Source of the DNA: Candidatus Bathyarchaeia archaeon
Lineage (GTDB): Archaea > Thermoproteota > Bathyarchaeia > Bathyarchaeales > Bathycorpusculaceae
Direction of reading: 5' to 3'
Assembly: GCA_038883795.1 (NCBI GenBank)
Contig: JAVZLK010000001.1
Location: 216,131-280,130, forward strand
Length of the DNA stretch: 64,000 nucleotides
Below the pieces are notes generated by a model. That model was given only the letters and a program-made list of their open reading frames with translations. It was not told where the DNA came from and searched no databases. Shown here one piece after another: positions 2,252-43,031 of this stretch (within the stretch, counting starts at the first letter, position 1; each line of letters begins with the position of its first letter). The position numbers were made by a program, and so were the translations under genes.

Positions 2252-2293
2252 AAGCGAGTGATTGCAGTCATGAGTTAGTTTAGGTGCGCTTTT

Positions 2294-8181: not shown

Positions 8182-8234
8182 GAATCAAAAGGTTTATTGA
8201 GGTGGCATAGACAAGTAGAGAGGTGCGGTTTAAC

Positions 8235-9516: not shown

Positions 9517-9588
9517 GCTGCTTTATTAGTTTTCACTAAACTTATAATGTTTCTTTCTTATAATTTGTTCAAAGCGGGTGGAACAATT

Positions 9589-10176: not shown

Positions 10177-10256
10177 TCTCAATCCTTATCACTATATGAA
10201 AAGGTTTAAAAGGGACAATGTTAAGGGAAAACAAACGGACAACGGAGTTAAAAAGC

Positions 10257-10610: not shown

Positions 10611-10700
10611 AGCATCTTCACGTTACATCTAAAGCTGAAAGTTTAATATGTAAAGTCTTTTATTAACAACTAGACATATCCATTTAAAAGGAGACCTTTC

Positions 10701-11456: not shown

Positions 11457-11457
11457 T

Positions 11458-12504
11458 GTGAAAACGATGCAAATTGCCATAGTTCATTTCACCAAAAATG
11501 ATTTAGCAAAGTACCCATTCCTTAAAGAAACAGCAGAATACGTTAAAAAACTAGATTTAAAAATTGAAGATTTAACAAGCCCGGAATTCTCCAGCATCCT
11601 CGAGCGTGCAAAAGAAAGAGTTGAAGAAGCAATATTATACGCTTTGGTAAGCAGAAGGCTCCGCAACGAAGAAATCGAAATCCTTTCCTTCCCCGTTGCA
11701 ATCATGCTGACATTGGCAACAGAAAACTCCTTCATCAAAAAAAGATACGCCCTAGCAGAAGCTAAACAAGCCTACAACGATATGAAAATTGAACCGAAAG
11801 AAAGAATCCTAGCTATCGCACAAAACTTCAACTGGAAACTTGCTTTAAACTCGGATACTAGCATTCCTTACGAGTTTAAACTTCACTTCACCGACTATCT
11901 AAAAAACACAACACAACTCAAAGACAAAAAATGGAAACTAGTCAACCGCCTTCTAATAAACGGTTATGTTTACCTAACCAAAACCGAAACCGCGAGGATC
12001 CTAAGTGAAGAAGTGCGGAGGCAAATTGAAAAAAGACTAAACGTAAAGGAATTGCCCGAATTTCCGCCAACAATAATGAATATTGCTGAAAAAATAAAAA
12101 GCCTATCCGTTGAAAAAATAGGAAAGGCTGAAATGGAAGGATTCCCAAAAACAATAGCACAACCAGCCTTTCCACCATGTATAAAAAGCCTTTACCAATC
12201 TATCTCATCTGGGCGCCACCTCCCCCACATAGGAAGATTTACACTAACAGCCTTCCTCATAAACATAGGAATGCCACCAGAAAACGTCACCGAACTCTTC
12301 AAAAACTTCTCCGACTACGACCAAAGAATGACCAGCTACCAAGTAGAACACATAGCAGGCGAAAGGGGCTCAAGAACCCGCTACATTCCACCAAAATGCG
12401 ACACACTAAAAACCCACGGCATCTGCATAAATCCAGACTCGCTATGCCAAAATATACGCCATCCCTTGGCCTACTACAGAAGAAAAGTGAAAATAGCCAA
12501 ATAA
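11458..12504 (+). CDS. priL: DNA primase large subunit
   Basis: KYPF, FPPCI, LPHIGRF, YQVEHIAG, PPKC...GIC...C...HPLAYY Fe-S domain. Confidence 0.95.
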   Translation: MKTMQIAIVHFTKNDLAKYPFLKETAEYVKKLDLKIEDLTSPEFSSILERAKERVEEAILYALVSRRLRNEEIEILSFPVAIMLTLATENSFIKKRYALAEAKQAYNDMKIEPKERILAIAQNFNWKLALNSDTSIPYEFKLHFTDYLKNTTQLKDKKWKLVNRLLINGYVYLTKTETARILSEEVRRQIEKRLNVKELPEFPPTIMNIAEKIKSLSVEKIGKAEMEGFPKTIAQPAFPPCIKSLYQSISSGRHLPHIGRFTLTAFLINIGMPPENVTELFKNFSDYDQRMTSYQVEHIAGERGSRTRYIPPKCDTLKTHGICINPDSLCQNIRHPLAYYRRKVKIAK

Positions 12505-26859: not shown

Positions 26860-27082
26860 TTGTTTTCACGATTGCCATTTTAATATGGTACAAGTTTTAA
26901 CGTTTATTCAAAAATCAAAACTGACCATTAAAACTTAATTCCAATATTTTCAGAAAGTTCAAAGTTTTAATCAACCCTTTAAATAATAATCTTTAGATTG
27001 CGTTAGTTTCTGTGACATACAAAGCGTCTTACTTTTCCTCTTCAATTATTGTTGTAACAAAATCTATTTGGTGATAAAGTAT

Positions 27083-27643
27083 ATGCACCTATTAAAGAAT
27101 GAAAAGGGATTAAGCGTAGTAGTTACGACATTGATAATTCTTGTGGTCTCGGTTCTGCTGGCAACCATTGTAACTTTTTACGCCATAAACGTAGTAACAA
27201 CAAGGGTGCAGGAAGAATCATTACACCTTAGTAAACAGCACGTTTGGTATAATACCACTGGTTCATGGGCTCAAGCAGCTATAGTAATCGTAAACACGGG
27301 CGGAAGAGACGTAGTTATCGACAAAATCTCAGTTCGAGGGCAAGAATGTCCATGGAATAATGTTTATTATTGGAGAACAAACAACGTGACAGTTTCAAAT
27401 GACTTGGAGGTAACTTCAACTAATATTACCGGTTTGACTTTTGACATTATGGTGCAGGGTGAAATGCGCACTTTTCGGCAAGCTGATGACGATTTGACTT
27501 TGAGGTCCGGCTGGACTATAGTTATTTACATTATGAGCCCTGATAGCATATCGGCTAATGATGTTGGCCAGACTGTGGGCATAACAGTGTTCACTTCAAA
27601 TGCACAGTATTACAAAGAAGCTAATATTGAAGCAGCGGAATAG
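27083..27643 (+). CDS. Archaeal type IV pilin / archaellin-like protein
   Basis: Class III signal peptide KNEKG|LSVVVTTLIILVVSVLLA followed by a beta-rich domain (VNTGGRDVVIDKI.VRG). Confidence 0.75.
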   Translation: MHLLKNEKGLSVVVTTLIILVVSVLLATIVTFYAINVVTTRVQEESLHLSKQHVWYNTTGSWAQAAIVIVNTGGRDVVIDKISVRGQECPWNNVYYWRTNNVTVSNDLEVTSTNITGLTFDIMVQGEMRTFRQADDDLTLRSGWTIVIYIMSPDSISANDVGQTVGITVFTSNAQYYKEANIEAAE

Positions 27644-27673: not shown

Positions 27674-29710
27674 TTAAGTCTTTTTTAGGTAGCCTTCTCT
27701 TGGTTCGTATATAGTTCCTTCTCTTAATAGTTGTCCTAAAAGGCGTTCTGCTTCATTTCTTGAAATTTTGTATTTAGTCTCCAACTCACCCAGAAGCGCT
27801 GCTTTTTCTACTATTCCCGTTTCTTTTTCCATTTCAAGCATTGTTGATAGGATTATTTGAAGTTTGTCTCTTACGCTTTTTGGTTTTCCAGTCATTATGA
27901 GGTCTATGTCATACTTGTAGGAGGACAGGTCTATACCAACTTCTTCGAGGGACCGTTTCATAATGTTGATGGCTGCTTCTGCATCTTCGGCTAAAACTTC
28001 TTTTCTTAAGGCTGCTCTGGCTCTTGCTTCAGCTATGCGCACAAGGGACTCTAGTTGCCGTGCTGTTATCGCTACTGGAGAGCCTTCTGTTTCGCTTGCT
28101 GAGCGCATGGCTAAGTAGAAGTCGTTTAGGCGTTTTAGGGCTTCTTGAGTCAAAACGGGCTTAATCCCTTTAGCATAGCTTATGTATTTTCGTAATAATT
28201 CCAAGGGTATTGGCGGTTCTACGGGAGTTAAACCCTTTCGATGAATTTCAAGGATGTGTTCCGACATTTTGCTGTCTACCTCTTTGTTTGGCACATCCCT
28301 CAAAATGAAGATTAGGTCAAACCTTGAAAGAATAGTGACTGGCAAGGAAATGTTTTCAGCAATGGTGCGGTGGGGTTCGTATCTTCCCAAGGCTGGGTTG
28401 GCTGCTGCGAGGATGGCTGTCCTTGCGTTTAGGGTTGCGACAATTCCTCCTTTTGCAACAGAAACCGTATGCTGTTCCATGGCTTCATGGATGGCAACCC
28501 TGTCTTCTGGGCGCATTTTATCAATCTCGTCAATGCATGCTATTCCTTTATCAGCTAATACTAGGGCGCCAGCCTCCAGGCTCATTCCGCCGCCTCTTTC
28601 GCGGATGACTGCTGCTGTTAAGCCGGCGGCGGTTGTGCCGCGTCCAGAGGTGTAAAGTCCGCGGGGTGCTATTCTGGCCACGTATTGCAATAGCTGAGAT
28701 TTTGCTGTTCCCGGGTCTCCTACCAAAAGAGTATTTAGCTCTCCCCTAATTGTTATGTCTGGGAGGGTTTTGGGTACACCTCCGAAGAGGAGGTACATTA
28801 TGGCTTCTTTTATGTGGTCGTATCCATATATTGATGGTGCTATTGAGTTGATTATTTTGCGGTGTATCCATGGGTCTTTTGCCAATTCAAGAATTTTTTC
28901 TTCGTCTTCTGGTGATGGGAGAGCGATTTCCGGCTCTTTTCCCAAAACTTCAATCGAGTTGGCATCTAAATGTAAAATGAAGGTGCGGAGTTTTCCAACC
29001 CGTGGAAGTGTTGGCGAAACAGCGCGGACTATTCCAACTATTGAGACGTGGTCGCCTGGTCTTGCCACATCAACTATTTCTCCTCCAACAAGCTTAACAT
29101 GCAATGTTCTGGGTAACTGTCCCGGCGGCAAATCTTCTGGTCTTTCTTGTAGGCGCAAGTCTTGGGAGTCTATGAAGGTGGATTCTTCTTGGATGAAATC
29201 GAAGGGTCCTTTTGCTCTGCAAGATGGGTTGGCGCAGGCGAAGGGTGCTTTGAGAAATTGTCCTGTTTGGTTCACTGGGGTTATTTCGCCGCATCGTTTG
29301 CATTTAAATGCTGCTTGCATGACCATGGGGCGAACGGGTGTTGAGCGGACAACTATGCCCTCCACCATTACAAGTTTTCCAATATGGATTGAGCCAAGTT
29401 TTCGTAATGGTGTTGCTTCCCAAAGCCTAACAATTCTCACGTTTACTGTGTCTATTTTTTCTGCATATTCTGGGTCTTCGCTTTGAAGTTGTGCATAAGC
29501 AGCATTGTTGGCGTGGTTTAGGAATTCGTCTGGTTTTTCTAAGAGTCCTTCAGCAAGCTTTTGTTCGAAAGCCCAAATATCCTCAAAATCAACAATTAAA
29601 GAAGTTTTCCCGGCGACTGCCATTTGCGAAATTCTTTGGCGATATTTTTCCGCTTTAAAAAAATCTTGAAAGAGCGCTTGAGGGTCTAAAGTTTCCAGTT
29701 TCTCCGTCAT
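27674..29710 (-). CDS. mcm: MCM replicative helicase
   Basis: C4 zinc motif, GDPGTAKS, IDEIDKM, SRFD, TARQLES, C-terminal WH domain; no intein. Confidence 0.97.
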   Translation of the reverse strand: MTEKLETLDPQALFQDFFKAEKYRQRISQMAVAGKTSLIVDFEDIWAFEQKLAEGLLEKPDEFLNHANNAAYAQLQSEDPEYAEKIDTVNVRIVRLWEATPLRKLGSIHIGKLVMVEGIVVRSTPVRPMVMQAAFKCKRCGEITPVNQTGQFLKAPFACANPSCRAKGPFDFIQEESTFIDSQDLRLQERPEDLPPGQLPRTLHVKLVGGEIVDVARPGDHVSIVGIVRAVSPTLPRVGKLRTFILHLDANSIEVLGKEPEIALPSPEDEEKILELAKDPWIHRKIINSIAPSIYGYDHIKEAIMYLLFGGVPKTLPDITIRGELNTLLVGDPGTAKSQLLQYVARIAPRGLYTSGRGTTAAGLTAAVIRERGGGMSLEAGALVLADKGIACIDEIDKMRPEDRVAIHEAMEQHTVSVAKGGIVATLNARTAILAAANPALGRYEPHRTIAENISLPVTILSRFDLIFILRDVPNKEVDSKMSEHILEIHRKGLTPVEPPIPLELLRKYISYAKGIKPVLTQEALKRLNDFYLAMRSASETEGSPVAITARQLESLVRIAEARARAALRKEVLAEDAEAAINIMKRSLEEVGIDLSSYKYDIDLIMTGKPKSVRDKLQIILSTMLEMEKETGIVEKAALLGELETKYKISRNEAERLLGQLLREGTIYEPREGYLKKT

Positions 29711-30276
29711 TCTCTCACTTTCTCATAATTCATTATTTGTTTTCTCCATTTTTGAATAAGACTGTAAAGTTGGTCATAGAGAATTCTCTCTTCAACGGTC
29801 AAGTTTTTTAATGTTTGTTCAACTTGAGCTGGAGCCGAGGCAAGGGAAACTATTTTCTTCAACCTTGCATTTAACACGTCCTGGGTTAAATGTTTAATTT
29901 TTTCGTATTCCCGTATCTTTTCCGGATTTTTCGAGGCTTCCTCCTTAAGTTCGGTGAGGTATCTGCGAAGTTTTGGGTAAAAGTTTTCTGGCAGTTTTGG
30001 TATTTGTCCGGCCGTTTGCACTCTTTCAGTCCACTGAATTTTGTAAAGTTTTGTGGCGTCTAAACGCTCATCTTCTCTAAACCGCGCTATCCCAGCTTTA
30101 ACCAGCTCTTGAGCTATCCAAAATTGAACCTCATATTCATTTCCTTCCTCAAAGGGACCAACATTTAATCCTGCAAGCTTGATTTCGGGGCAGTTTCTGT
30201 TGGCAATAATTTTTGCTAGTGTATGTTCAAAGATGAAATCTAAATTTTTAATGTGTGTTGGTGTTGTTTTTGGCAT
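29707..30276 (-). CDS. GINS23 subunit
   Basis: N-terminal B domain (GPF..G...EV.FWIA.EL), LP.NFY, RLKKI, LT.EE; overlaps the mcm start. Confidence 0.85.
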   Translation of the reverse strand: MPKTTPTHIKNLDFIFEHTLAKIIANRNCPEIKLAGLNVGPFEEGNEYEVQFWIAQELVKAGIARFREDERLDATKLYKIQWTERVQTAGQIPKLPENFYPKLRRYLTELKEEASKNPEKIREYEKIKHLTQDVLNARLKKIVSLASAPAQVEQTLKNLTVEERILYDQLYSLIQKWRKQIMNYEKVRE

Positions 30277-30396: not shown

Positions 30397-31644
30397 TTAA
30401 GGCCACAAACCCAACGTTTTTATTGCTTCAGCTACTCTTCCAACTCCAAGCATTAGGGCTGCTGTTCGCATGTCGCACTTTTCCTTTTTCATTAAATTGT
30501 AAACGTCGTTGAAAGCTCTAACCATCTTATTTTCCAGTTTTCGATTCACTTCTTCTAATGTCCAGTGTTCGCGTGTTAGGTTTTGAACCCATTCATAATA
30601 GCTTGCTGTTACGCCGCCCGAGTTAGCCAATATGTCTGGAACAAGCATTATTCCTTTCTCGTTAAGAATTTTGTCTGCTTCTGGGGTTGTTGGGCCGTTG
30701 GCGCCTTCCGCCACAATTTTTGCGCTTATCTTGTCCGCATTGGCTTTTGTTATCTGGTTTTCCAAGGCAGCTGGTATAAGTATGTCGCATTCTGTTTCAA
30801 GAAGCTCCTCGTTTGTTATGTTTTTGCATCCCTTATAGTTGATCACGGAGCCTGTTTTTGATTTATGTTCATAAACATAATAGGGGTTCAATCCTTCTTT
30901 GCAATAAATCCCTCCTACGGAATCGCTTACTGCCACAACTTTACAACCCATGTCATAAGCTATTTTAGCAGCATTCCACCCAACATTCCCGTAACCTTGA
31001 ACAGCAACGGTTGCTCCTTTAAACTTTAAACCTGCAACCTTTGCGGCTTCCCTTGCACAAACAACCACGCCTAAGGATGTGGCTTCGGCTCTTCCTTCTG
31101 AACCGCCTACGCTTATTGGTTTTCCAGTGACGCATTCTGGGACGCTGTAGCCTTTGAATTGGCTGTAGGTGTCCATTATCCAAGCCATGGTTTGAGCATC
31201 TGTATATACGTCTGGTGCTGGCACGTCGCGGTATGGTCCGATAACGTCTAATATTAGGCTTGTGTAGCGTCTTGTGAGGCGTTCAATCTCGCTTATACTC
31301 ATTTTTTTAGGGTTGCAGCATACTCCGCCTTTTGCACCTCCATAGGGTATGTCCACAACAGCACATTTCCAAGTCATCCACATCGCCAAAGCAGTAACTT
31401 CATCTAATGTGACGTTTGGGTGGTAGCGTATTCCGCCCTTGAATGGTCCCCTTGCATCGTTATGTTGAACGCGGCAACCAGTGAAAGTACCAATTTCTCC
31501 GTTATCCATCTTTATTGTAACGGAAACGATGAGCGACCGTTTGGGATGTTTTAACATTTCATGGATCCCAGGGTCAAGATTTAATTTTTCAGCAGCTATC
31601 CTCAACTGTTCTAATGCCGTGTCTAAGGCTGACTGTTCCTTCAT
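30397..31644 (-). CDS. gdhA: Glutamate dehydrogenase (Glu/Leu/Phe/Val family), standard length
   Basis: KGGIRYHP, MTWKCA, GGAKGG, VPAPD, QGYGNVG, EGANGP. Confidence 0.95.
   Translation of the reverse strand: MKEQSALDTALEQLRIAAEKLNLDPGIHEMLKHPKRSLIVSVTIKMDNGEIGTFTGCRVQHNDARGPFKGGIRYHPNVTLDEVTALAMWMTWKCAVVDIPYGGAKGGVCCNPKKMSISEIERLTRRYTSLILDVIGPYRDVPAPDVYTDAQTMAWIMDTYSQFKGYSVPECVTGKPISVGGSEGRAEATSLGVVVCAREAAKVAGLKFKGATVAVQGYGNVGWNAAKIAYDMGCKVVAVSDSVGGIYCKEGLNPYYVYEHKSKTGSVINYKGCKNITNEELLETECDILIPAALENQITKANADKISAKIVAEGANGPTTPEADKILNEKGIMLVPDILANSGGVTASYYEWVQNLTREHWTLEEVNRKLENKMVRAFNDVYNLMKKEKCDMRTAALMLGVGRVAEAIKTLGLWP
30673..30756 (-). repeat. 84-bp inverted repeat, copy 1 (82/84 identical to 35765..35848)
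   Basis: The reverse complement matches 35765..35848 except at two synonymous positions. Confidence 0.95.
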
Positions 31645-31748
31645 AAAAACCACTCTTCTTTTCACTTATTGTTTGAAGCGTATTTTAAACTTTTAAGTGT
31701 GAGGAGTTTGGCTTGGGGCTTGTAAAATTTAGAAAAAGAGAGAGGATG

Positions 31749-33356
31749 TTAGTCTAGGATTTTTTCGATTGCGTCTTTTTCTGCTTCGTGAGGCATTGGT
31801 ATACCAGTAACTTTTGCGGCTGTTTCGCTTAAGCTCATCAAATCATTTCTGTTGATGAGCTCCAGTTTCCATTTTCTGTTGCCTGCAAGAAGTTGTTTTA
31901 GTCCGACGCCTATGCGGTCTGTTAGGTATGTGTATAAGGCTACGGCTTCCCATGGTATCTCTTTGAAGCGTTCTCCATATTTTGCTTGCAATTCTGGAGC
32001 TGCGATGAAGAATTTTTCTGGGGTGTTGCCGTATCTGTCTGCGAAGGCTTTTGGCAGTTTGCCCTCTTGGGCTAGTTGTTTGAAGTAGCTTGCTTTCATA
32101 ACAGCTGTTAATGGTGAGCGTCCCATCAAAACTGCTTTTACAAAGGGGCCGTCTCCAAAGTTGCTCATGGCTATTGCTTTGAAAATTTGGGTTTCGTTTA
32201 TGAAGCCCCCAGCCATTATCAAATCCGGCACATATCGCCCCTTTTTCTTCAATATTTGGGCGCATCTAAGAACTATGGCTTCTAGGTAAACTGTTGGGAT
32301 GCTCATTTCATCCATCATTGGAACTGGACTCATACCAGTTCCGCCCCCTGCTCCGTCAAAGTATACTGCGTCGATTTTTGCTTCCGAAGCTATTTTTAAT
32401 GTGTATGCAACTGCTGAGGGTCTGTATGCGCCAGTTTTTAATGTGACGTGTTTTGCTCCTTGTTTGCGGAGCCATTCTATGTCTTCTATCATGTTCCTTT
32501 CTTTTGGTATGCCAACTCTGCTGTGCCTTTCGAAGGATTTGAAGACGCCTTCTTTGAAGGCTTGCTGGACTGTGGGGTCTTCTGGGTCTGGAATTACTAT
32601 GTAGCCTCTTTTCTTCAGCATTATGGCTTTCTCTAAGTCTCTAACGCGGACTTCGCCTCCAATGGCTTTTGCGCCTTGTCCCCATTTTCTTTCTATTATG
32701 TTTACTTCCAATTTTGATATGGCATACACATCAACGCCTAGTCTTTGGTCTTCAACATTTGTTTGTACGGCTATGTCACCGTATTTTCCGTCCCAGAACT
32801 TTCGGAACAAGTCTACTCTGCGTTTTAACTCTTTTGAGTATGTTACTTTGCCCTTTGTGATTTGGGCTTCTGGATCCATGCCGCAAACGTTTTCTCCTAC
32901 AACTATTATGGCTCCTGAAAGGGCTGAGCCTATTGCTAAGTCTTCCCAGTTTAGTCTTGCAACGTCTGTTGAGCCAAATGCGCCATTGATTACTGGAACT
33001 TTGAGGGGTATTCCAGCAACTTTTGTTTCTATGCTAACATTTGGAAATAGAGCGACATCCGGGTTTTCCTCGATTCCTAAAGCTTCGAATAAGCCTGCTT
33101 GAATGTTAAAGTGGGACCAATCTAATCCAAAATCTTTGAGGGCTCCTGCAGTGCTGTATCCGAATTGGACTGGTTCGGGGTATAGGGCTTCTCTTCCTCT
33201 GAAGGCTGATAAGCTTATTTCGCACATTATTGGGCAGTCGCGGATGCATATGGGGCACATTCCACTGGTTGGGCTTGTGTCTTTAACGCGGGTCATTGTC
33301 CCTGTTGTTGATTTTCCGTTTAAGTATGAACTATTTCTTTGAACACGTTCCGTCAT
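31749..33356 (-). CDS. FMN-binding glutamate synthase family protein (stand-alone, atypical)
   Basis: KWGQGAK..GGE, DGAGGGTG, AGG, GR FMN-barrel motifs; N-terminal SGMCxxCxxxCxxxC. Confidence 0.88.
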   Translation of the reverse strand: MTERVQRNSSYLNGKSTTGTMTRVKDTSPTSGMCPICIRDCPIMCEISLSAFRGREALYPEPVQFGYSTAGALKDFGLDWSHFNIQAGLFEALGIEENPDVALFPNVSIETKVAGIPLKVPVINGAFGSTDVARLNWEDLAIGSALSGAIIVVGENVCGMDPEAQITKGKVTYSKELKRRVDLFRKFWDGKYGDIAVQTNVEDQRLGVDVYAISKLEVNIIERKWGQGAKAIGGEVRVRDLEKAIMLKKRGYIVIPDPEDPTVQQAFKEGVFKSFERHSRVGIPKERNMIEDIEWLRKQGAKHVTLKTGAYRPSAVAYTLKIASEAKIDAVYFDGAGGGTGMSPVPMMDEMSIPTVYLEAIVLRCAQILKKKGRYVPDLIMAGGFINETQIFKAIAMSNFGDGPFVKAVLMGRSPLTAVMKASYFKQLAQEGKLPKAFADRYGNTPEKFFIAAPELQAKYGERFKEIPWEAVALYTYLTDRIGVGLKQLLAGNRKWKLELINRNDLMSLSETAAKVTGIPMPHEAEKDAIEKILD

Positions 33357-33444
33357 TTTCAGTTCACCTTTACATTTGCAAACTTTTAGATATGATGGGT
33401 AATTTGCGTGCGCATTTAAACGTTACTTTAAAAGAATGCTGAAT

Positions 33445-33460
33445 TGAACATTTGTGTACA
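33445..33460. promoter_or_regulatory. Candidate operator TGAACA-TTTG-TGTACA upstream of the glutamate-synthase-like gene
   Basis: Same 6-4-6 architecture as the box at 34298..34313. Confidence 0.55.
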
Positions 33461-33478
33461 AAGTCTAGAACATAGCTT

Positions 33479-34222
33479 TTAAGGGATTTCTATCTGCAAC
33501 CCATCAACTATATATTCACGCCTTTGGTAAGTTTGTGGGCTGTACCTTCCGCCAGCCTTCTTAATTTTTAAGAAGTTCTTATCATCCTGTCTGGAAAGGT
33601 CTATAACCACTTGTGTCATGTGTTCGATTATGGCGCAAAACTCCTTTGGGTGAGCGTTTTTCGCCATTGTCCAATAGGCGAGGGTCTGGTAGGCGTACAA
33701 AGCGGGGCAAACATGCCCAAAGAAGGCTTTAACAGCGTCTCTCCCCCAATTATGCTCCATAATGGAGAGGCTGTTAAAAACAAATCTTGTTCCCGGAGTT
33801 ACAAATTCTCTTTCAATTCTTCCGAAGAAGTGGTGGAAACGTTCGGGATCTTTCGAGCTTGGAACCTTTCTAATCCATGGTGGAGCCTTATCATAAAAGT
33901 CGCTGAATATAAGTTCTCCTTGTCCAGCGGCCTCTGAGAAGCAATCTAGAACCAACAGTTTCTTTTCCCATCCTTCGGGCAGCACTTTGGTTAATGGTGC
34001 AAGCTGGAGCATTAATGCTTGAGGAGGATATATAAAATCTAAATAAATGACTTGCTTTCCTTCCAGCAAGCCTTGTCGCATAAACGAGTAGAGGAATTCT
34101 CTTGCAAAGGTTCCGGATTCAACTTCCCACAGCACATTTTCTCCAAGTAACAACCCACCGCCTAAAAGTTGGTCTAGGCTTTTTGTTCCCGTCGAGTGAA
34201 ACGCTGGCTTTTCATTTTGCAA
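33479..34222 (-). CDS. KaiC/RAD55-like (RecA-fold) protein with degenerate Walker motifs
   Basis: STG...LDQLLGGGL start typical of KaiC/RAD55; Walker A reads VESGTFAR (no GK[TS]); Walker B reads FVFNSLS. Confidence 0.8.
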   Translation of the reverse strand: MQNEKPAFHSTGTKSLDQLLGGGLLLGENVLWEVESGTFAREFLYSFMRQGLLEGKQVIYLDFIYPPQALMLQLAPLTKVLPEGWEKKLLVLDCFSEAAGQGELIFSDFYDKAPPWIRKVPSSKDPERFHHFFGRIEREFVTPGTRFVFNSLSIMEHNWGRDAVKAFFGHVCPALYAYQTLAYWTMAKNAHPKEFCAIIEHMTQVVIDLSRQDDKNFLKIKKAGGRYSPQTYQRREYIVDGLQIEIP

Positions 34223-34297
34223 TAGAGCTGCACCACGTTTATGGTTCGTAGGCGGTGTTAAAAATGTTATGTTGGGTTTTGAGACGTTTTATTGGTT

Positions 34298-34313
34298 TGT
34301 ACACGAGTGTACA
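34298..34313. promoter_or_regulatory. Candidate operator TGTACAC-GA-GTGTACA in the divergent kaiC-like/gdh2 promoter region
   Basis: Perfect 7-bp inverted repeat; extra half-sites TGCACA (34317) and TGAACA (34338). Confidence 0.6.
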
Positions 34314-34378
34314 TAATGCACACAACCTTTCTATATTTGAACATAGGTCTTTTTACTCTTCGGAAGGAAGTGATAAAA

Positions 34379-36154
34379 ATGTTGAACTCTGTGGAATTAT
34401 CCGCACGAGAATTGGGAATGATGAAGCTTATGGTAGATTTTTTCGCTGAAAAACCAGAGCTAACAGCAAAAATAGAAAGTTACACCACAGCCCATTATGC
34501 CCTCTTAACAACATACTCTGAAAACTTTGGCATACCAATAGAAGACGCTCTAAAAGTCTTCGAAGAACTTCAAAGAAAACTAACGGAAGCAGAATACGTT
34601 CACGTAAAGGCACCAGAACCAATAAAGAAACTTTTGCCCCTAACCAGAGAAGAACTTAACATGCTCCGGGTCTTGGTTGATTATTTCGCTGAAAATCCGA
34701 AAATGGCTCCTGCCGGCTCATTCCTATCAAAAAAGGAAGATGCTTTGGCTGAGGCATACCTATGGTTTTATGGAAACAGCGAAGGCAACGGCGAAGTAGC
34801 AAGAGAAACGTTAAGAAATTTGGTTGAGAAGCTTCAAACAGCAGTTTACATAAAGGTCGACACATTGGCTCCCGTGGCTGTCACGCCAAACCCTTACGAA
34901 GCCGCCCTTAAACAGCTGGATTTAGCCGCCGAGAAACTAAAACTCGACCCTGGAATTCACGAAATATTAAAGCGTCCCATGCGCACACTCATCGTTAATA
35001 TTCCAGTAGTTATGGATGACGGCAGCATCCAAGTTTTCACTGGCTACCGAGTCCAATACAACGACGCCTTAGGCCCAACAAAGGGCGGAATACGTTACCA
35101 TCCAGATCTTACGCTGGATGAAGTGACAGCCCTAGCTGCTTGGATGACATGGAAAACCGCTGTAACTGGACTACCCCTCGGCGGAGGTAAGGGCGGCATC
35201 CGATGCAATCCCAAAGAGATGTCAAAGGCTGAACTTGAACGTCTGACAAGAGGATACGTACGGGCTATAGCAAAATTCATAGGGCCGTTCACTGATGTGC
35301 CAGCGCCTGACGTTTACACGACAGCGGAAATGATGGCTTGGATAATGGATGAATACAGCGAAATAGTTGGCTACCCAGTTTTCGGGGTTGTAACAGGCAA
35401 ACCCATCAACGTTGGCGGCTCGCGTGGAAGAGGCGAAGCAACCTCAAGGGGTTTAATGTACACAGTTATTGAAGCAGCTAAACATTTGGGCATAAACCTA
35501 AAAGGTGCAACCGTGGCAGTGCAAGGCTATGGAAATGTTGGCTATCACGTAGCACGATTATTACATGAAATTGGTTGCAAAATCATTGCAGTTTCAGATT
35601 CTAAAGGCGGTGCCTACAATCCAGAGGGTTTAAACCCGGAAAAAGTATTAGCCCACAAAGACAGGACAGGTTCTGTAGTTGACTACCCAGGTAGCACCTT
35701 CATAACAAATGAGCAATTGTTAGAGTTAGAATGTGACATTCTGGTTCCAGCAGCTTTGGAGAATCAGATAACAAAGGCCAATGCGGACAAGATAAGCGCA
35801 AAAATTGTGGCGGAAGGTGCCAACGGCCCAACAACCCCAGAAGCAGACGAAATCCTATTCAAAAAAGGAGTCTTCGTTATTCCAGACATTCTCGCTAATT
35901 CTGGAGGCGTTATTGTCAGCTACTTTGAGCAAGTACAGAACCAGATGAACTATTATTGGACAGAAGAGGAAGTGCGAAACAAACTGAAAGAAACAATAAC
36001 GAAGGCTTTCCACGACGTTCTAAACATGGCAAAACAGCATAACGTGAACATGCGCACTGCAGCCTACATGCTCGCTGTTAAAAGAGTGGCAGATGCTTTA
36101 TTGGCACGTAAAGGAACCGCCTTCTCTTTAGAATCTCCATTAGCGCCTCGTTAA
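34379..36154 (+). CDS. Glutamate dehydrogenase with a ~170-aa tandem-repeat N-terminal extension
   Basis: GDH core from NPYEAALKQL with KGGIRY, MTWK, GGGKGG, VPAPD and GYGNVG intact; ATG 34379 follows an SD-like GGAAGTGA. Confidence 0.92.
   Translation: MLNSVELSARELGMMKLMVDFFAEKPELTAKIESYTTAHYALLTTYSENFGIPIEDALKVFEELQRKLTEAEYVHVKAPEPIKKLLPLTREELNMLRVLVDYFAENPKMAPAGSFLSKKEDALAEAYLWFYGNSEGNGEVARETLRNLVEKLQTAVYIKVDTLAPVAVTPNPYEAALKQLDLAAEKLKLDPGIHEILKRPMRTLIVNIPVVMDDGSIQVFTGYRVQYNDALGPTKGGIRYHPDLTLDEVTALAAWMTWKTAVTGLPLGGGKGGIRCNPKEMSKAELERLTRGYVRAIAKFIGPFTDVPAPDVYTTAEMMAWIMDEYSEIVGYPVFGVVTGKPINVGGSRGRGEATSRGLMYTVIEAAKHLGINLKGATVAVQGYGNVGYHVARLLHEIGCKIIAVSDSKGGAYNPEGLNPEKVLAHKDRTGSVVDYPGSTFITNEQLLELECDILVPAALENQITKANADKISAKIVAEGANGPTTPEADEILFKKGVFVIPDILANSGGVIVSYFEQVQNQMNYYWTEEEVRNKLKETITKAFHDVLNMAKQHNVNMRTAAYMLAVKRVADALLARKGTAFSLESPLAPR
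35765..35848 (+). repeat. 84-bp inverted repeat, copy 2
   Basis: cagataacaaaggccaatgcggac...ccagaagcagac matches the reverse complement of 30673..30756. Confidence 0.95.
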
Positions 36155-36246
36155 TTTCCCCCTTTTTCTATTTTATGTGTACATTTTTTGATTTTTATGA
36201 ACATATTTAAAAGCAACCGTTAAAAAGAATAAACACGGGAAATGGG

Positions 36247-38199
36247 ATGTCAGTTCATCTTCATACAACCATAACAAGAAAAACAAATGAAATCCTTGAA
36301 GAGTTAGCAAAAACCTACGGTACAAAAAGTCGTGTTCTCGAAAAAGCTGTAGAAACCTTGCTAAGAGTAGATAAGGTTGGTTCTTGTGATGACTGCGTTA
36401 TAAAAGCGAAGGTTCACGAGCAAACCAAGTTAAGAGAAGCCCTTGACCTCACATCGATTGGAAGGAGAAGCCTTGATGGACTTTTGGAAGTTGCCATCGG
36501 CAATAAAACAGTTGAAGATTTGGTTAGGGAACAAAAAGAAGAGGCAAAAAACGTTATTGAAATTCTTAAAAGCTCAGTTGCATGGAAAACTCCTTCAAAC
36601 TTTAAAGAATTCCTCTTAGTTTTAGAGGAGATTAAGGGGCTCACAAACCTTTTTGATATTCCCTCCTACAGCGAAATTGACAACATGGCAGTTTTAAGAC
36701 CTAAAGTCTTTAAACGCTTACCAGTTTTAGTTGCTTTTCAAATCGCCACAATCCTTGAAGGTATTGGAGTTTGCTTCGACCTTCGCGTAATGGGTGAAGA
36801 TATTGCCATTAAAATGATTCGCCCCGAAGTCTATCCTCTAAAAAGGAAAGAATTTGGCGATTTTCTAAATCAACAGATTGAAAAAGAATTAATGAACGTA
36901 ACTCCGGGTTTGTTCAAAAACACTTTGATGCTTGTGGGACCAGCCTTTATGAGTTGGGCAGAAAAGCATCTGGAAGAACCTATCACGGATTTGGGGAACT
37001 TTATAGAAGATGCGAGAACCGTTCTTGGCGTTAGCGAGTTTCCAAGAGAACCAAAAGATTTCGTGAAAGCCATTCTTTCAGCCTTTGTCAAAATGAACTG
37101 GTTCAAGCAAGCAAAAATTTTGGCTGAAAAGAAAGAAAACACCTTGGAACTGGTCTTTCAAGTTACCGCAGCTCCACTAGCCAAATTGTCCGTAACCGTT
37201 CTTTCTGTTATGTTAGCAACTCGCGGATGGAAACTTCTGAACTATTCCATTGAACACACAACCGTAAACATGGCAATCCAATTTGTAGGCGCAGAGGACC
37301 AAAGCCTCCTCGACCAACTAGCTGAATTAAGCCTCTTCCAAATAATAGGAAAACAATTTTTAGATGTAGTTCCAGTTCCTCGAGACCTCTTCAACTCCTT
37401 TGCATCAAGAGTCTATGAAAGCGATAGGCAAAAATTTGAGGAAATATACCGCGCAACCGGAGTCCGCATTTCAAATGCTATCCGTATGCTTGCAAGGAAT
37501 GATGCGGAGAAAATTAACAGACTCTCTAAAAACTTTATTCTCAAGAATATTGGTGTGACCCAGCCAGATGCGGAGGTAAGGTTTGTTGATGATGAGCACT
37601 TCACTATCATATTCAAGCGTATTGACCCCCTCGTAATGAATAGTCAGCGGGTCTTGATAGAATCCATGTTTAGGGAGTTAGGCTACGAAATTACAACCAC
37701 AACTTTTCAAAACCTTCTTAGTTTTAAGTTGAAACTTTTGGAAAAACCCATTTTGGAACCACTGCCGCGGAAAAAGTTGATGCAAACCCTTATTGAAGGC
37801 ATGTCCTGCAACTCTGTGGAAGAAGCTTTCGCCATTGAAAAAGAACAATTGGACGAATTATTCCCCGAAGATTATCCATGGACAATAAGGGATGTTGGCG
37901 AAAGGCTCATGAGCATGTATAGGGAACTGGGCATAGAGGTTGAAATAGAATATTTTGAAGGTGGCTTCACCCTCAAATATAAGAGTTGCCCATATTACAA
38001 GCTAGTTAAGACCAACCAGAAGACATGGCTCTGCAGTCTCCGCAAAAAAACACTAGAATACGTCATTTCTAGGGTCAGCCACGGCAAGAAAGGAAAAATC
38101 AAAATCATAAAATCGCTTCTTCAGAATGAACACCCATGCGAATACGCCATATTTCTAACGGGCTTTCTTGAAAAGGAGGAAGAAAAAGCCAGCGAGTAA
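36247..38199 (+). CDS. Hypothetical regulator: N-terminal ribbon-helix-helix, CxxC, and V4R/MetOD1-like C-terminal sensor domain(s)
   Basis: VHLHTTI strand plus two helices (TNEILEELAK, KSRVLEKAVETL); SCDDC; C-terminal FTLKYKSCPY...WLC...HPCEYAI. Confidence 0.6.
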   Translation: MSVHLHTTITRKTNEILEELAKTYGTKSRVLEKAVETLLRVDKVGSCDDCVIKAKVHEQTKLREALDLTSIGRRSLDGLLEVAIGNKTVEDLVREQKEEAKNVIEILKSSVAWKTPSNFKEFLLVLEEIKGLTNLFDIPSYSEIDNMAVLRPKVFKRLPVLVAFQIATILEGIGVCFDLRVMGEDIAIKMIRPEVYPLKRKEFGDFLNQQIEKELMNVTPGLFKNTLMLVGPAFMSWAEKHLEEPITDLGNFIEDARTVLGVSEFPREPKDFVKAILSAFVKMNWFKQAKILAEKKENTLELVFQVTAAPLAKLSVTVLSVMLATRGWKLLNYSIEHTTVNMAIQFVGAEDQSLLDQLAELSLFQIIGKQFLDVVPVPRDLFNSFASRVYESDRQKFEEIYRATGVRISNAIRMLARNDAEKINRLSKNFILKNIGVTQPDAEVRFVDDEHFTIIFKRIDPLVMNSQRVLIESMFRELGYEITTTTFQNLLSFKLKLLEKPILEPLPRKKLMQTLIEGMSCNSVEEAFAIEKEQLDELFPEDYPWTIRDVGERLMSMYRELGIEVEIEYFEGGFTLKYKSCPYYKLVKTNQKTWLCSLRKKTLEYVISRVSHGKKGKIKIIKSLLQNEHPCEYAIFLTGFLEKEEEKASE

Positions 38200-38259: not shown

Positions 38260-39237
38260 TTGCCTTTGAGTTTTGAGATGTGGGCTGAAAAATATCGACC
38301 AAAAACATTAGATGCCATGGTCAACCAAAAAGAAATAGTTGAACGCCTAAAAAGCTTCGTAAAATCAAGAAATGTGCCCCACTGCATCTTTGCCGGACCA
38401 CCGGGAACTGGGAAAACCACGGCTGCCCTTTGTTTGGCGAGAGACCTTTACGGTGACGCCTATAGAGAGCATATTATGGAGTTAAACGCCAGTGATGAAC
38501 GAGGTATTGATGTTGTTCGTGAAACTGTGAAAACTTTTGCCAGGGTTAGGTCTATTGGCGAGATTCCCTTTAAAATAATGATTTTGGACGAGGCTGACAA
38601 CATGACTTCTGATGCGCAGCAAGCATTAAGGAGGACTATGGAGCGTTATACAGAAACTTGCCGTTTCATTCTCTGTGCCAATTATAGTGGGAAAATAATA
38701 GAGCCAATCCAATCCAGATGTGCACCGTTTCGTTTCACTTTTCTACCCAGAGAAGAACAAGACAAATATTTGAAGCACATAGCAGAAAAAGAAGGCGTAA
38801 AACTGCTAAAAGACGGGTTAGAAGCAATTTTTGAAGTCTGCGGCGGAGACCTCAGAAAAGCAATCAACACGCTACAAGCAGCAGCATCGCTAAACAAGCC
38901 AGTAGACGCAAAAGTTGTTTACTCAATTGCTGGAAGAGCCAATCCCGCAGATGTACAGAAAATGATCGAAACCGCCATGAAAGGAGATTTCTTAGAAGCG
39001 AGAAAACAGTTGCGTGATATGATTCAAAAGTATGGAGTGGCTGGAAGCGACATAATCCGACAAATTCACACTGAAATCTTTCGGGGAGACATTCCAGAAG
39101 AATGGAAAATAAAATTGGCCGACATCGTTGGCGAAATAGATTATAGGCTTGTTGAAGGTGCCGATGAGGAGGTTCAATTAAGCGCTTTATTGGCAAGACT
39201 AGTTGAGGCTGGGCATGAATTAAGAAGGGCAAGTTAG
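38260..39237 (+). CDS. rfcS: Replication factor C small subunit
   Basis: WAEKYRP, GPPGTGKT, ELNASDERG, LDEAD, SRC. Confidence 0.97.
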   Translation: MPLSFEMWAEKYRPKTLDAMVNQKEIVERLKSFVKSRNVPHCIFAGPPGTGKTTAALCLARDLYGDAYREHIMELNASDERGIDVVRETVKTFARVRSIGEIPFKIMILDEADNMTSDAQQALRRTMERYTETCRFILCANYSGKIIEPIQSRCAPFRFTFLPREEQDKYLKHIAEKEGVKLLKDGLEAIFEVCGGDLRKAINTLQAAASLNKPVDAKVVYSIAGRANPADVQKMIETAMKGDFLEARKQLRDMIQKYGVAGSDIIRQIHTEIFRGDIPEEWKIKLADIVGEIDYRLVEGADEEVQLSALLARLVEAGHELRRAS

Positions 39238-40525: not shown

Positions 40526-42949
40526 TTACTGTGTTGGAGATGTGGGTGTTGGTGCTGGCGGCGGAGCACCTGGTTTCTTTCTTAGAGCCATGTAAACTCC
40601 AAGTAAAGCCAATATTAGGGCTATTAAGCCTAATCCAAACCCTGTTATTGCAAGAGTCTGAGTGAATGGGTCGACGGTTTGTGCTGTTAGGGTTAGCAGT
40701 GCGCTTTCCGCAGCTTCGTATTCTTCGTTCCCATTCCAGCTTGCTTTTACTTGCCAAACGCCGGCTCGGTCAAGTTTAATTATGTCCGTGAATGTTCCTA
40801 CGTCGTTTGATGCAACGGTGCGTGTTACGGTAGTGCCGTTTGGCGCAATATAAGTTAATGTTATGGTTGCCATTTGTGCCGGTGTCAATGTTCCTGTTAT
40901 GGTGACGTTTTCGTTTACATTAACTGTTAAGGCTGAAGCTGTTATGGTGAGCGCGCTCGGGATTTTTGTTACAGTTAGTGTTGCGGGTGGGCTTTCTGCT
41001 GCTTTGTAGGTTTCATCTCCATCCCATTTTGCTTTTATTGTCCATGTTCCAGTTTGGTTGGCTGTGAACGTAGTGCTGAAAAATCCTGTTTCGTTTGAGT
41101 TAACGATTTTTGTGACAGGTATTATTCCTTGTGGGTTCATGCATTCTATGAATATTGTTGCTTCTTTCGCTGGGTACAGTGTGCCACTTATGCTTATTTC
41201 TTCTCCAAGCGTTATGGTGTAGCTTGAAAGTGTTAAGGTTATCATGCTGGAGGCTTTTTCTACAGTTAATGTGGTTGTAGCGGTTGCTCCTTCATGCTCG
41301 TAATCGCCGTTCCAGCCTACCATAATTGCGTATGCTCCAGGGGCCGGCGGAATCCATGTAAAAGTGTATTCTCCGTTTTCATCTGTTACAACCGTTGCGA
41401 GATATACGAAAACTGGAATTGGTTCACGGGAATATTCTATCCTAACCTCAACGTTTGGTATGGGCACATCGCCTGTCTCATTTGTTACCCGTCCACTTAT
41501 TGTTACCTGTTCGCCTATGACTATGCTTGAAGGTTCTACTGCCACAGTGATTGAACTTGAAACTTTGCTAATGCTCCATATGCCAAGGTTGGATTGTGGA
41601 ACTATCATGAGGCCTGCAGTAAAACCTGCAGTTACGATTTCCGCTTTAGCGTCGTTGTCCACATCATCTATAACAATACTTTGTATGTATGACGCTTCTT
41701 CCCAGTCTTTGGATTCTTCTGTAGCTAATGTTTCTCCATTCCAAGAAAATATCTTAATATGCGCCCTTGACCAATATATGATCCAGAAATTTACGCCTAC
41801 AACTATTTCATTCTTTCCGTCTGAGTCAACATCGCCTATTGCTACTGCTGTTCCAAACGTAATGGCTGGAGGCTCTATCCTTCCACTTTCTACATTGGCT
41901 TTTAGTGTTAATACTTCTTGTTTCCACGACCATACTCTCAGTTGGGCATTTACAATTTCGCCATTGGCGTGATATCCAATAGTTATTATTTCAGGTATTC
42001 CATCCTCATCTATGTCGCCTGTTGTCACAGCGTTAGCGTAAGTTTCAGAGTAAGTGTACCATTGGTAACCTAGCTCCCAGTCTAGTGTTGAACCATCCCA
42101 TGTGCATATCCTAAGCGTGGCACATCGCTGTTTTAGATTTTTATCGTAAAAATCGCCAACAATCACAATTTCCAATTCTCCATCATCGTCCACATCGTTT
42201 ATTGATACGGAACGCCAGATGGTTTCTCCACTTATCATTTTTTCATAACTTGCTTCAAGAACAAAATTCCCTTCAGTTATATTCCAAATGGTGATTACTC
42301 CATGAAAACCTGCCGGGCCTGTCATATTTCTGTAACCGACAGCAACTATTTCTACTACATTGTCTTTATCCACATCGCCCACTGCTAAGCCCAAGAATCT
42401 TGTTGTTTCGTTTTCATTGTCAGGCCATCGCGTAAACGCCTTCCTTGTGAGTGATGAGCCATTCCAGTTTCCAACAAATAGAAATCCTTGTTCTTGAAAG
42501 ACGAATTTTGGAATTGGAAATAATGATATTACGAATAGGAAATTACCATATCCAGCTCCAATTACTTCTATATCTGTATCATTATCGACATTGCTTAAAG
42601 CTACCGCGTTAAAATGTGTATCATTTGAAGTTGTGTATTCAGGATGGAAATATTCGTTATGTTCTGATGTTAATTCTGTGCCATTCCAACTCCAAATATT
42701 CATTTCGCCATCATAATAGTCTGTCGTAGAATTGTGAAAGTATCCGACAGTAACCATTTCGGTAATGCCATCGTTATCTATATCCCGTGCGGCAACAGCA
42801 TTGGTATAGCTTTCGCCATCGGTAGACCATGCATGACTTTTTTCTAATGTAAGACCGTTTTCAGCTTGTGCTATGTTTGGCAGAAAAGCAATTAAAAGAA
42901 CCATAGCGATTAGTAGCGTAGTGAATCCTTTTCTTAATGTTTTATTCAC
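40526..42949 (-). CDS. Secreted, membrane-anchored surface protein: FG-GAP/VCBS-like beta-propeller plus tandem Ig-like domains
   Basis: Signal peptide; about seven D(I/V)DxDGxxEI repeats; three Ig-like repeats ending in WxGxxxY; C-terminal TM, RKK and a Pro/Thr tail. Confidence 0.85.
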   Translation of the reverse strand: MNKTLRKGFTTLLIAMVLLIAFLPNIAQAENGLTLEKSHAWSTDGESYTNAVAARDIDNDGITEMVTVGYFHNSTTDYYDGEMNIWSWNGTELTSEHNEYFHPEYTTSNDTHFNAVALSNVDNDTDIEVIGAGYGNFLFVISLFPIPKFVFQEQGFLFVGNWNGSSLTRKAFTRWPDNENETTRFLGLAVGDVDKDNVVEIVAVGYRNMTGPAGFHGVITIWNITEGNFVLEASYEKMISGETIWRSVSINDVDDDGELEIVIVGDFYDKNLKQRCATLRICTWDGSTLDWELGYQWYTYSETYANAVTTGDIDEDGIPEIITIGYHANGEIVNAQLRVWSWKQEVLTLKANVESGRIEPPAITFGTAVAIGDVDSDGKNEIVVGVNFWIIYWSRAHIKIFSWNGETLATEESKDWEEASYIQSIVIDDVDNDAKAEIVTAGFTAGLMIVPQSNLGIWSISKVSSSITVAVEPSSIVIGEQVTISGRVTNETGDVPIPNVEVRIEYSREPIPVFVYLATVVTDENGEYTFTWIPPAPGAYAIMVGWNGDYEHEGATATTTLTVEKASSMITLTLSSYTITLGEEISISGTLYPAKEATIFIECMNPQGIIPVTKIVNSNETGFFSTTFTANQTGTWTIKAKWDGDETYKAAESPPATLTVTKIPSALTITASALTVNVNENVTITGTLTPAQMATITLTYIAPNGTTVTRTVASNDVGTFTDIIKLDRAGVWQVKASWNGNEEYEAAESALLTLTAQTVDPFTQTLAITGFGLGLIALILALLGVYMALRKKPGAPPPAPTPTSPTQ

Positions 42950-43031
42950 ATTCTTTCCTCCTAACAATAGACAAACTATTGAAACGGATGATATTTAACA
43001 ATTTTCAGTAGAAACGGCATCTACGACCGAA

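Follow-up and report, generated by a model that had tools for sequence, protein, structure and literature searches.

Ribbon-helix-helix (RHH) repressors such as MetJ, Arc, CopG, NikR, and omega bind tandem operator subsites, in which the repeats are about one helical turn apart, and regulate their own expression. In PutA of enteric bacteria, an amino-acid-catabolic dehydrogenase is auto-regulated through an RHH domain that acts on several short operator sites, and the DNA-binding domain of the archaeal regulator MsvR is a winged helix. MsvR is a methanogen-specific V4R-domain repressor, which binds repeated boxes on its own promoter and whose DNA binding is modulated via the V4R cysteines (PMC3729527). 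Inactivated KaiC-like (iKaiC) domains are named in archaeal signal transduction (PMC5847659), and Bacillus subtilis has a single circuit of a catabolic glutamate dehydrogenase (GDH; RocG or GudB), the dedicated transcription factor GltC, and the glutamate synthase gene gltAB (PMC6794564). Here we describe a gene cassette from an uncultivated hot-spring archaeon of the class Bathyarchaeia that resembles each of these systems in part, with no family match to MsvR or the RocG/GudB-GltC circuit and none that is established to the RHH repressors. It consists of an inactivated KaiC-like gene (kaiCL), an extended GDH gene (gdh2ext), and a gene for a 650-amino-acid (aa) putative regulator (reg650), and is found in a 64,000-nucleotide stretch of DNA (positions 216,131 to 280,130 of contig JAVZLK010000001.1, assembly GCA_038883795.1), referred to below as the window; all coordinates of this genome are those of the window.

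The stretch from 30397 to 38199 holds five genes between those for MCM (27674-29710, minus strand) and GINS23 (29707-30276, minus strand) on one side and rfcS (38260-39237, plus strand) and rfcL on the other. The names of homologs place the source organism in the Bathyarchaeia. The minus strand carries gdh1 (30397-31665), gltBL (31749-33356), and kaiCL (33479-34222), and the plus strand carries gdh2ext (34379-36154) and reg650 (36247-38199). This divergent five-gene layout had been proposed in a first-pass annotation of the window, along with the identification of two GDHs, a GltB-like flavoprotein, and a “dead” KaiC-like protein; the coordinates and strands confirm the former, and Pfam, NCBIfam, and motif checks support the latter. 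The explanation that we favor, with a probability of roughly 0.6, is that a local glutamate regulon is governed by a one-component regulator, probably a repressor, encoded by reg650; the self-contained core of this regulon is the trio of kaiCL and the divergently oriented gdh2ext-reg650 pair. The identities of the genes, the co-inheritance of the trio, and operators that are conserved and unique in the genome are shown by the data below; we infer that Reg650 is the box-binding protein, that its effect is repression, that its signal is a metabolite or the redox state, and that it is the likely partner of KaiCL. The RHH-like N-terminus of Reg650 would bind, in the form of several dimers, TGTACA/TGAACA hexamers that are phased by one or two turns of the helix; sensing would fall to its V4R/H-NOX/Bet3-like modules and their conserved Cys and His sites; and the signal would relieve both the repression of the target genes and the auto-repression of reg650. 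In Bathyarchaeia, the regulon would have widened to include gltBL and, probably by co-transcription, gdh1.

The trio is inherited together. In a survey of 41 genomes (40 relatives and the source genome), true orthologs of kaiCL were found in 12 genomes and full-length reg650 in 11, and every kaiCL or reg650 found adjoined a gene for an extended GDH. A scan with the reg650 alignment, which covered all species genomes and yielded a set that partly overlaps with the genomes of this survey, retrieved 65 orthologous loci, 57 of them from Bathyarchaeia/Bathyarchaeota and 8, at 50-53% identity, from Promethearchaeota, Hermodarchaeota, or Thorarchaeota. Where the flanking sequence extends to 1.5 kb or more, gdh2 lies directly upstream of reg650 without exception (57 of 57 loci); where it reaches 2.9 kb or more, the N-terminal extension of the GDH and kaiCL are likewise always present (52 of 52), be the locus from Bathyarchaeia or from Asgard archaea. 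The trio is intact even in genome G075, where reg650 has moved behind kaiCL. Its flanks differ, with GINS23 and rfcS in Bathyarchaeia and NfnA/PyrK-like and Pat-like ACS-GNAT genes in Asgard archaea, and gltBL adjoins it in 38 of 41 Bathyarchaeia loci versus 0 of 6 Asgard loci, which are without gdh1 neighbors as well. Since the trio is constant and gltBL and gdh1 are variable, the inherited unit comprises three genes, with gltBL and gdh1 as lineage-specific neighbors. The five-gene unit envisaged in the first-pass annotation thus did not hold: conservation of the neighborhood across genomes applies to the trio, in Bathyarchaeia and Asgard archaea alike, and not to the set of five, in which gltBL is widespread and often stands alone.

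The trio has also been lost in places. Pseudogene pieces of kaiCL remain in genomes G048 and G004, and in the cassette-free genome G022 the last trace of Reg650 is a 22-residue piece of its C-terminus (82% identity; ~7750-7815 of locus L014, beside the gltBL start), the deletion scar of a cassette that was once present. An apparent split of reg650 by in-frame stops in G021, G005, and G007 was rejected, as the supposed stops are the gene's own termination codon, close to the C-terminus. In the GDH tree, the gdh1 clade stands apart from the gdh2 clade (support 100/100), and the Asgard copies group together as one clade within the gdh2 clade of the Bathyarchaeia (96/92), which suggests, without proving it, that the cassette was transferred from Bathyarchaeia to Asgard archaea.

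The second set of observations concerns the TG(T/A)ACA boxes that the first-pass annotation had noted in three intergenic regions. They are a real cis element, whose arrangement is unique in the genome and conserved across phyla. Pairs with a phase of 10 or 20 bp sit on three promoters, at positions 33445/33455, 34298/34308 (with a further box at 34338), and 36178/36198. In the entire 2.18-Mb assembly, the pattern TGWWCA-N4-TGWWCA occurs twice, both times at this locus, and TGTACA-N14-TGAACA occurs once, also at this locus. Operator O1 (34298-34343), located in the divergent kaiCL/gdh2ext spacer, contains TGTACA at 34298-34303 and again at 34308-34313, a degenerate TGCACA at 34317-34322, and TGAACA at 34338-34343, so that its first three boxes read TGTACA-N4-TGTACA-N3-TGCACA (34298-34322). 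The boxes of O1 flank the TATA-like sequence TTTCTATATT of gdh2ext (34328-34337), with three of them upstream and one between the TATA and the expected transcription start. In the same spacer, TGTTAAAAATGTT (34256-34268, minus strand), which is kept in most of 15 aligned spacers, probably represents the TATA/B recognition element region of a kaiCL promoter. Operator O2 and the reg650 promoter (36178-36213) consist of TGTACA (36178-36183), a 14-bp gap, and TGAACA (36198-36203), which abuts TATTTAAAAG (36204-36213). Operator O3 (33445-33460), TGAACA-N4-TGTACA, lies upstream of the gltBL TATA-like TTTTAAAG / GTTTAAAT (minus strand), a dozen bases from TTTTAAAG.

All three operators recur in relatives. 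The N4 box pair is found in 54 of 56 kaiCL-gdh2 spacers, among them 6 of the 6 Asgard ones, and every one of the 15 + 10 spacers inspected, including those of Asgard loci, has the full four-box layout of O1 around the TATA. At the reg650 promoter, TGTACA-N14-TGAACA is followed by the TATA in most of 15 Bathyarchaeia spacers, and the Asgard reg650 spacers have TGTACA boxes on either side of ATTAATAAA. Of 40 cassette loci from Bathyarchaeia, 39 have a box pair in the stretch from the stop of kaiCL to the start of gltBL; upstream of gltBL in the cassette-free loci L016, L017, L020, and L022, this pair is missing, and the cassette-free L014 and L018 retain only a half-site. As gltBL shares the box pair, it appears to have joined the same regulon in Bathyarchaeia, which supports the link between the two arms of the locus drawn in the first-pass annotation. 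The 31666-31748 spacer upstream of gdh1 contains no TGWACA box; gdh1 sits 83 bp behind gltBL and may be co-transcribed with it. A search for RNA data covered the listed sequencing runs: none is recorded as RNA, two with a metatranscriptomic label are flagged as probably DNA, and the short contigs obtained, from several related strains, carry no information on transcripts, their starts, or their levels. Given that the boxes lie next to or between core promoter elements, repression and auto-repression would be the most likely modes of regulation.

These data also bear on the view that the trio is a mere neighborhood without shared function, which travels by vertical descent and one or few transfers, the boxes being those of an unrelated global regulator. 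The genomes are indeed related, and the Asgard copies, as one clade nested among the Bathyarchaeia copies, may stem from one transfer. Still, a global regulator would not be expected to leave the rest of the 2.18-Mb genome free of phased pairs, the boxes are retained in Asgard loci with a regulator identity of 50-53% and with different flanks, and gene loss is coordinated. We regard this view as highly improbable.

The reg650 product has no Pfam match over threshold. Its recognizable modules are the RHH-like N-terminus (residues 1-40), a GSCxxC motif (C47 and C50), and four helix-hairpin-helix-hairpin repeats (residues ~119-190, 269-346, 420-497, and 547-637). The structural model of Reg650 (predicted local distance difference test [pLDDT] score of 70.9) matches Bet3/TRAPP with a Z score of 8.8 (~120 residues; root mean square deviation, 3.6-3.9), H-NOX with Z scores of 7.3-7.6, and the phenol-sensor domains of DmpR/MopR with Z scores of 7.1-7.8; Foldseek returned no match with an E value of ≤0.001, and a sequence search of the PDB returned nothing useful. 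The MetOD1 profile scores 17.4 bits, which is below its cutoff of 23.8. Eight residues are invariant in 64 of 64 sequences, namely, H4, H6, C47, C50, C581, C596, H629, and C631, the last four of which are located in the last module. MetOD1 and V4R have been described as akin to HNOB, with three shared conserved Cys residues (PMC5847659). Judging from the alignment, Reg650 would have exactly such a V4R/MetOD1-type Cys set in C581, C596, and C631, with H629 in addition. At the other end of the protein, the model of the monomer has residues 1-10 unstructured, followed by helices 11-24 and 27-40; H4 and H6 lie in what would be the ribbon, and the second helix begins after a Gly-Thr/Ser turn.

This protein is rare, with 40 matches among 1.84 billion representative proteins and a single full-length cluster. 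Among its distant relatives, proteins of 490-530 aa match it over the first ~500 residues, and others only over the first ~190, after which comes a receiver domain; being shared with receiver-domain proteins, the N-terminal part of Reg650 behaves as an output module. Taken together, the module set and the Cys sites are consistent with a one-component sensor-regulator. The pairing with kaiCL and GDH does not extend to the distant relatives, as the one on a Deferrimicrobium contig (L094) has different neighbors: a radical-SAM protein, CDC48, and an amine oxidase, with no KaiC-like or GDH gene.

Among characterized proteins, MsvR is the closest working analogue of the putative regulator Reg650: a one-component regulator from archaea, it has boxes on its own promoter and a sensor domain of the V4R type that bears Cys residues. 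However, MsvR is a small homodimer with one V4R domain that targets oxidative-stress genes, whereas Reg650 has 650 aa, four modules, an RHH-like N-terminus, an extra GSCxxC motif, and a GDH cassette as its putative target. Searches of Pfam, NCBIfam, the PDB, and the 1.84 billion representatives showed no similarity of Reg650 to MsvR, and the lack of sequence similarity, together with the different architecture, ruled out its membership in the MsvR family. With regard to operator logic, the RHH repressors come closest, with their short N-terminal strand-helix-helix and phased repeats over the core promoter, but the size of Reg650 and its four V4R-like modules are unlike those of any of them. 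PutA differs in carrying enzyme and RHH domain on one polypeptide; in the cassette, the RHH-like domain belongs to a separate, putative sensor protein, and what the GDH carries is an acidic domain without a known fold.

The second member of the trio, KaiCL, is a 247-aa RecA-fold KaiC/RadB-like protein and the best-conserved protein of the three (74-77% mean column identity). It matches PAXNEB over residues 8-74 (40.1 bits versus a cutoff of 28) and KaiC below threshold (17.3 bits versus 26.6); its PDB sequence matches are RadB (2cvf; E = 1.1e-4) and SSO2452 (E = 0.0098), and its ten best Atlas clusters are KaiC/RAD55 family ATPases. In 19 of 19 orthologs, the P-loop site reads E(S/T)GTF..EF, without GK[ST], so that the description of KaiCL as a dead KaiC in the first-pass annotation was justified. 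With the Walker A motif G-x4-GK[ST] missing throughout and the KaiC model below its cutoff, a KaiC/RadA/RecA-type ATPase was ruled out. KaiCL is best assigned to the KaiC/RadA/RecA-type fold in an inactivated form, and it is predicted to be unable to bind ATP through a P-loop. Like the iKaiC domains, it would combine a RecA/KaiC fold that lacks the P-loop with a genomic tie to a sensor or regulator; unlike them, it stands alone as a 247-aa protein, and its genomic partners are a putative RHH-V4R protein and a GDH that bears a novel domain.

A search among longer proteins found only one fusion of this KaiC-like subfamily. P0281, a 434-aa protein labeled Thermodesulfobacteriota, has a P-loop-less KaiCL-like domain at residues 10-232 (35% identity over 92% of KaiCL), an XRE-type helix-turn-helix (HTH) at 254-312, and a cupin domain at 362-431. 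As a single case, it points to KaiCL working with a DNA-binding regulator. We infer that KaiCL is an accessory subunit, most likely of the regulator and, with lower likelihood, of the GDH, where it would dock on the acidic N-terminal domain.

The third member, gdh2ext, is listed as an open reading frame at 34292-36154 that begins with TTG; translation more likely starts with the ATG at 34379, which is preceded by the Shine-Dalgarno-like GGAAGGAAGTGAT and gives a 591-aa GDH with a 168-aa N-terminal extension. The extension (34379-34882, plus strand) consists of two beta-alpha-alpha-alpha-beta repeats that form similar halves, and the catalytic core (34883-36154) has full-length matches above threshold to the Pfam domains ELFV_dehydrog (287.9 bits) and ELFV_dehydrog_N (195.9 bits); the score of the NCBIfam archaeal GdhA equivalog is 642 bits, under its cutoff of 750. 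Matches to the extension were found in 11 of the 301 genomes sampled from the class, always in reading frames of ~590 aa, and among longer proteins all its carriers in the best 120 of 257 matches are GDHs. The domain is compact and is modeled with confidence (pLDDT, 82.6; predicted TM score [pTM], 0.82), with no fold match with a Z score of ≥5 among 48,161 PDB chains, no Foldseek match with an E value of ≤0.001, and nothing useful in a PDB sequence search. Its weak structural neighbors (Z of ≤4.7) are mostly HTH or winged-helix domains, namely, those of LuxR/NarL, Lrp/AsnC, sigma region 4, and ScpB.

These neighbors raise the question of whether the boxes are read by the N-terminal domain of the extended GDH, or by KaiCL, with Reg650 serving as a sensor or scaffold that has no role in DNA binding. 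Such an arrangement would sit well with the sub-threshold RHH evidence for Reg650. Yet none of these matches exceeds a Z score of 4.7, and none of the 48,161 chains reaches 5; the net charge of the extension is negative in 15 of 15 orthologs, which argues against DNA binding; two genomes that lack kaiCL and reg650 (G303 and G262) have the extended GDH beside Lrp/AsnC genes, implying that a separate regulator is needed; and the relatives of Reg650 join the same N-terminal module to receiver domains, as is typical of DNA-binding outputs. We therefore give this arrangement very little credence.

A more appealing alternative, if still an unlikely one, is that the extended GDH, or its complex with KaiCL, bears the signal, and that the N-terminal domain of the GDH, KaiCL, or both bind Reg650 and alter the DNA binding of the latter with the glutamate flux, in the manner of RocG/GudB acting on GltC in B. 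subtilis. It would extend the favored explanation rather than exclude it. The N-terminal extension is exclusive to one GDH clade, it combines a confidently modeled compact structure with the lack of a known fold match, its acidic character would suit a protein-protein surface, and the three genes are co-inherited; moreover, control of a transcription factor by GDH is established in B. subtilis (PMC6794564). On the other hand, gdh2ext persists without reg650 and kaiCL in G303 and G262, and the only fusion hint ties KaiCL to a DNA-binding protein and not to GDH. The RocG/GudB-GltC-gltAB circuit, which revolves around glutamate and 2-oxoglutarate, comes closest to the proposed circuit as a whole, a likeness that is functional only and that would be hypothetical for the cassette; it employs the LysR-type GltC and canonical GltAB, is not a cassette, and has neither a KaiC-like component nor a GDH N-terminal domain.

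The two genomes that lack kaiCL and reg650 deserve a separate description. Persistence of the extended GDH there indicates that its N-terminal domain does not depend on the other two proteins. In the GDH tree, the copies from G303 and G262 are nested among the cassette copies, so that the loss of kaiCL and reg650 represents a secondary replacement. In both genomes, the extended GDH is preceded by a gene for a 105-107-aa zinc-ribbon protein with four CxxC pairs, 70% identical between them, and faced by Lrp/AsnC regulators (L021, 9455-9772 on the minus strand and 10022-10489 on the plus strand; L022, 8460-8783 on the plus strand and 7766-8245 and 7287-7766 on the minus strand). The arrangement suggests that the enzyme is under a different set of controls there. 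The claim in the first-pass annotation that the switch does without PII or NrpR was supported for the transcriptional layer, as PII (PF00543) and NrpR (PF01995) were not found in the source genome, which, being 87% complete, leaves their absence unproven; the claim that it does without Lrp parts needs a qualifier, because Lrp/AsnC regulators and the zinc-ribbon protein take the place of kaiCL and reg650 in these two relatives. In L021, a gene for a 297-aa GNAT protein (6470-7363) follows the lone extended GDH.

Several observations weigh against a Reg650-centered explanation. The pTM of the whole Reg650 model is 0.40, and its fold matches, consistent as to family, are of middling strength only (Z of 7-9). 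The RHH assignment is weak at the sequence level: RHH_3 matches 3 of 10 family members, below its cutoff (best E value of 0.011, profile positions 6-41 of 44), and the best PDB profile match of residues 18-45, with an E value of 3.5e-4, is to the helix-hairpin-helix region of NAD-dependent DNA ligase. RHH is nonetheless the better-fitting, if unproven, label for the N-terminus. The TGWACA hexamer on its own is at chance level in the window and shows no enrichment there, with 71 matches versus 66.4 ± 9.2 in shuffled sequences, 29 out of 100 of which reach 71. In locus L019 (genome G026), where reg650 was not found in the genome, TGAACA-N4-TGAACA is seen upstream of gltBL (~7008-7023), which implies either a regulator gene that is missing from the assembly or a different reader of these boxes. 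The extended GDH occurs without its partners in G303 and G262, and the fusion hint from P0281 comes from one protein cluster with one member. Finally, the genomes are kin, and the counts given above overstate their independence.

On the left arm of the locus, gdh1 codes for a canonical 422-aa GDH, whose start is probably the ATG at 31644. It matches ELFV_dehydrog (283.6 bits) and ELFV_dehydrog_N (192 bits) above threshold over their full length, and it scores 577 bits with the NCBIfam GdhA_Arch model, under the cutoff of 750. The gltBL product, of 535 aa, is a divergent stand-alone relative of the flavin mononucleotide (FMN)-binding domain of glutamate synthase (GltS). Its residues 283-397 match positions 185-296 of the 369-position Pfam Glu_synthase profile (PF01645) with 39.3 bits, which is above the cutoff of 20.4 and makes it a member of the GltS FMN-domain superfamily; beyond this partial domain, it has no further domain, no NCBIfam match, and no PDB sequence match. 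A canonical glutamate synthase large subunit was ruled out on the grounds that only this partial domain is present, GATase_2 and GXGXG not having been searched for genome-wide. Near its N-terminus, the protein has a C-x2-C-x3-C-x3-C motif (C34, C37, C41, and C45), invariant in 58 of 58 sequences, including two paralogs at 48-49% identity, which might conceivably serve as an Fe-S entry point for electrons. GltBL is 74-96% identical across the order and was matched in 33 of the 41 genomes. The family is large, includes proteins from methanogens and bacteria, and goes by the labels “FMN-binding glutamate synthase family protein” and “glutamate synthase-related protein”; PF01645 is present on all of the listed homologs (at least 120) and on 100% of the members of its Atlas clusters.

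It is also conceivable that gdh1, gdh2ext, and gltBL encode a hetero-oligomer or counter-enzyme complex that sets the flux direction, with KaiCL as a regulatory subunit, after the models of Thermus GdhA/GdhB and B. subtilis GudB-GltAB. That gltBL and gdh1 sit beside the cassette at 38 of the 41 loci from Bathyarchaeia, and that gltBL shares the operator, would speak for such a complex, as would the gene complement of the source genome: gdh1 and gdh2ext are the only GDH genes found, and a search for PF01645 yielded, apart from one 20-bit match, no clear Glu_synthase-family gene other than gltBL. In addition, alternative glutamate synthases with divergent stand-alone GltS FMN-domain proteins at their core have been proposed (PMC9012536). 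The Asgard cassettes, however, do without gltBL and gdh1, and gltBL is frequently found alone, without a nearby GDH (L016, L017, L018, L020, and L015). A metabolic complex as the basis of the cassette seems quite unlikely to us.

The source genome has two glutamine synthetase genes, one of them (Gln-synt_C, 394 bits) inside the window at ~61516-62568 on the minus strand, some 23 kb downstream of the cassette. About 500 bp from it, at 63030-63413 on the plus strand, is a gene with a weak Lrp/AsnC-like match. No phased TGWACA pair was seen near these two genes.

The replication genes around the locus are flanked, in the window and syntenically in relatives, by genes for an 813-aa FG-GAP/bacterial Ig-like surface protein (40526-42967, minus strand) and a 191-aa pilin-like protein with a weak UpsA match (27068-27643, plus strand). 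In locus L027 (G048), both MCM (983-1822 and 3344-4588) and rfcS (9710-10051 and 11351-11980) are split, and the gaps of 1.3-1.5 kb look like inteins or other insertions. About 3 kb of extra DNA is found between the end of reg650 (~8940) and the start of rfcS (~11950-12050) in L033, L046, L061, L066, and L076, and 3.4 kb lies between gltBL and kaiCL in G007 (L004, 7447-10837). In Asgard archaea, every cassette in L086-L091 is followed by a gene for a ~930-aa Pat-like protein with CoA-binding, ATP-grasp, and GNAT domains (~9030-11930, plus strand), and a gene for an NfnA/PyrK-like FAD/Fe-S protein lies upstream (~1350-4190, minus strand). These genes were rejected as parts of the cassette, as their homologs in the Bathyarchaeia genome are located elsewhere (contig C5) and do not adjoin it. 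Along with the GNAT gene in L021, the Pat-like/GNAT genes raise the possibility that acetylation has a bearing on the extended GDH.

The literature searched contained no description of this cassette, and, within that literature, the judgment of the first-pass annotation that the gene set had not been described stands; a 2017 work on KaiC-like hubs, outside that search, may list the subfamily. What is new in the cassette is an undescribed regulator family together with two parts of unrecognized function, and a one-component repressor with a local regulon is an already known type. A bolder scheme, to which we assign only a small chance, would have KaiCL form a physical bridge from the GDH hexamer, at its novel N-terminal domain, to the RHH-V4R regulator, so that the catalytic or ligand state of the enzyme is passed directly to the boxes. 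The cassette would then be an archaeal trigger-enzyme circuit with an adaptor that moved between Bathyarchaeia and Asgard archaea and that, in Bathyarchaeia, was wired to a ferredoxin-type, glutamate-forming GltBL, thereby setting the direction of the glutamate flux.

Glutamate dehydrogenase is a meeting point of carbon and nitrogen metabolism and is central to peptide fermentation, by which Bathyarchaeia and Asgard archaea are thought to live; little is known of the control of their genes. The cassette is a compact circuit, with a regulator from an undescribed family, an operator made of 6-bp boxes, and three to five target genes, which can be tested in vitro and needs no culture. If the signal of the regulator is found, the boxes could mark the glutamate or redox state in the metatranscriptomes of Bathyarchaeia and Asgard lineages.

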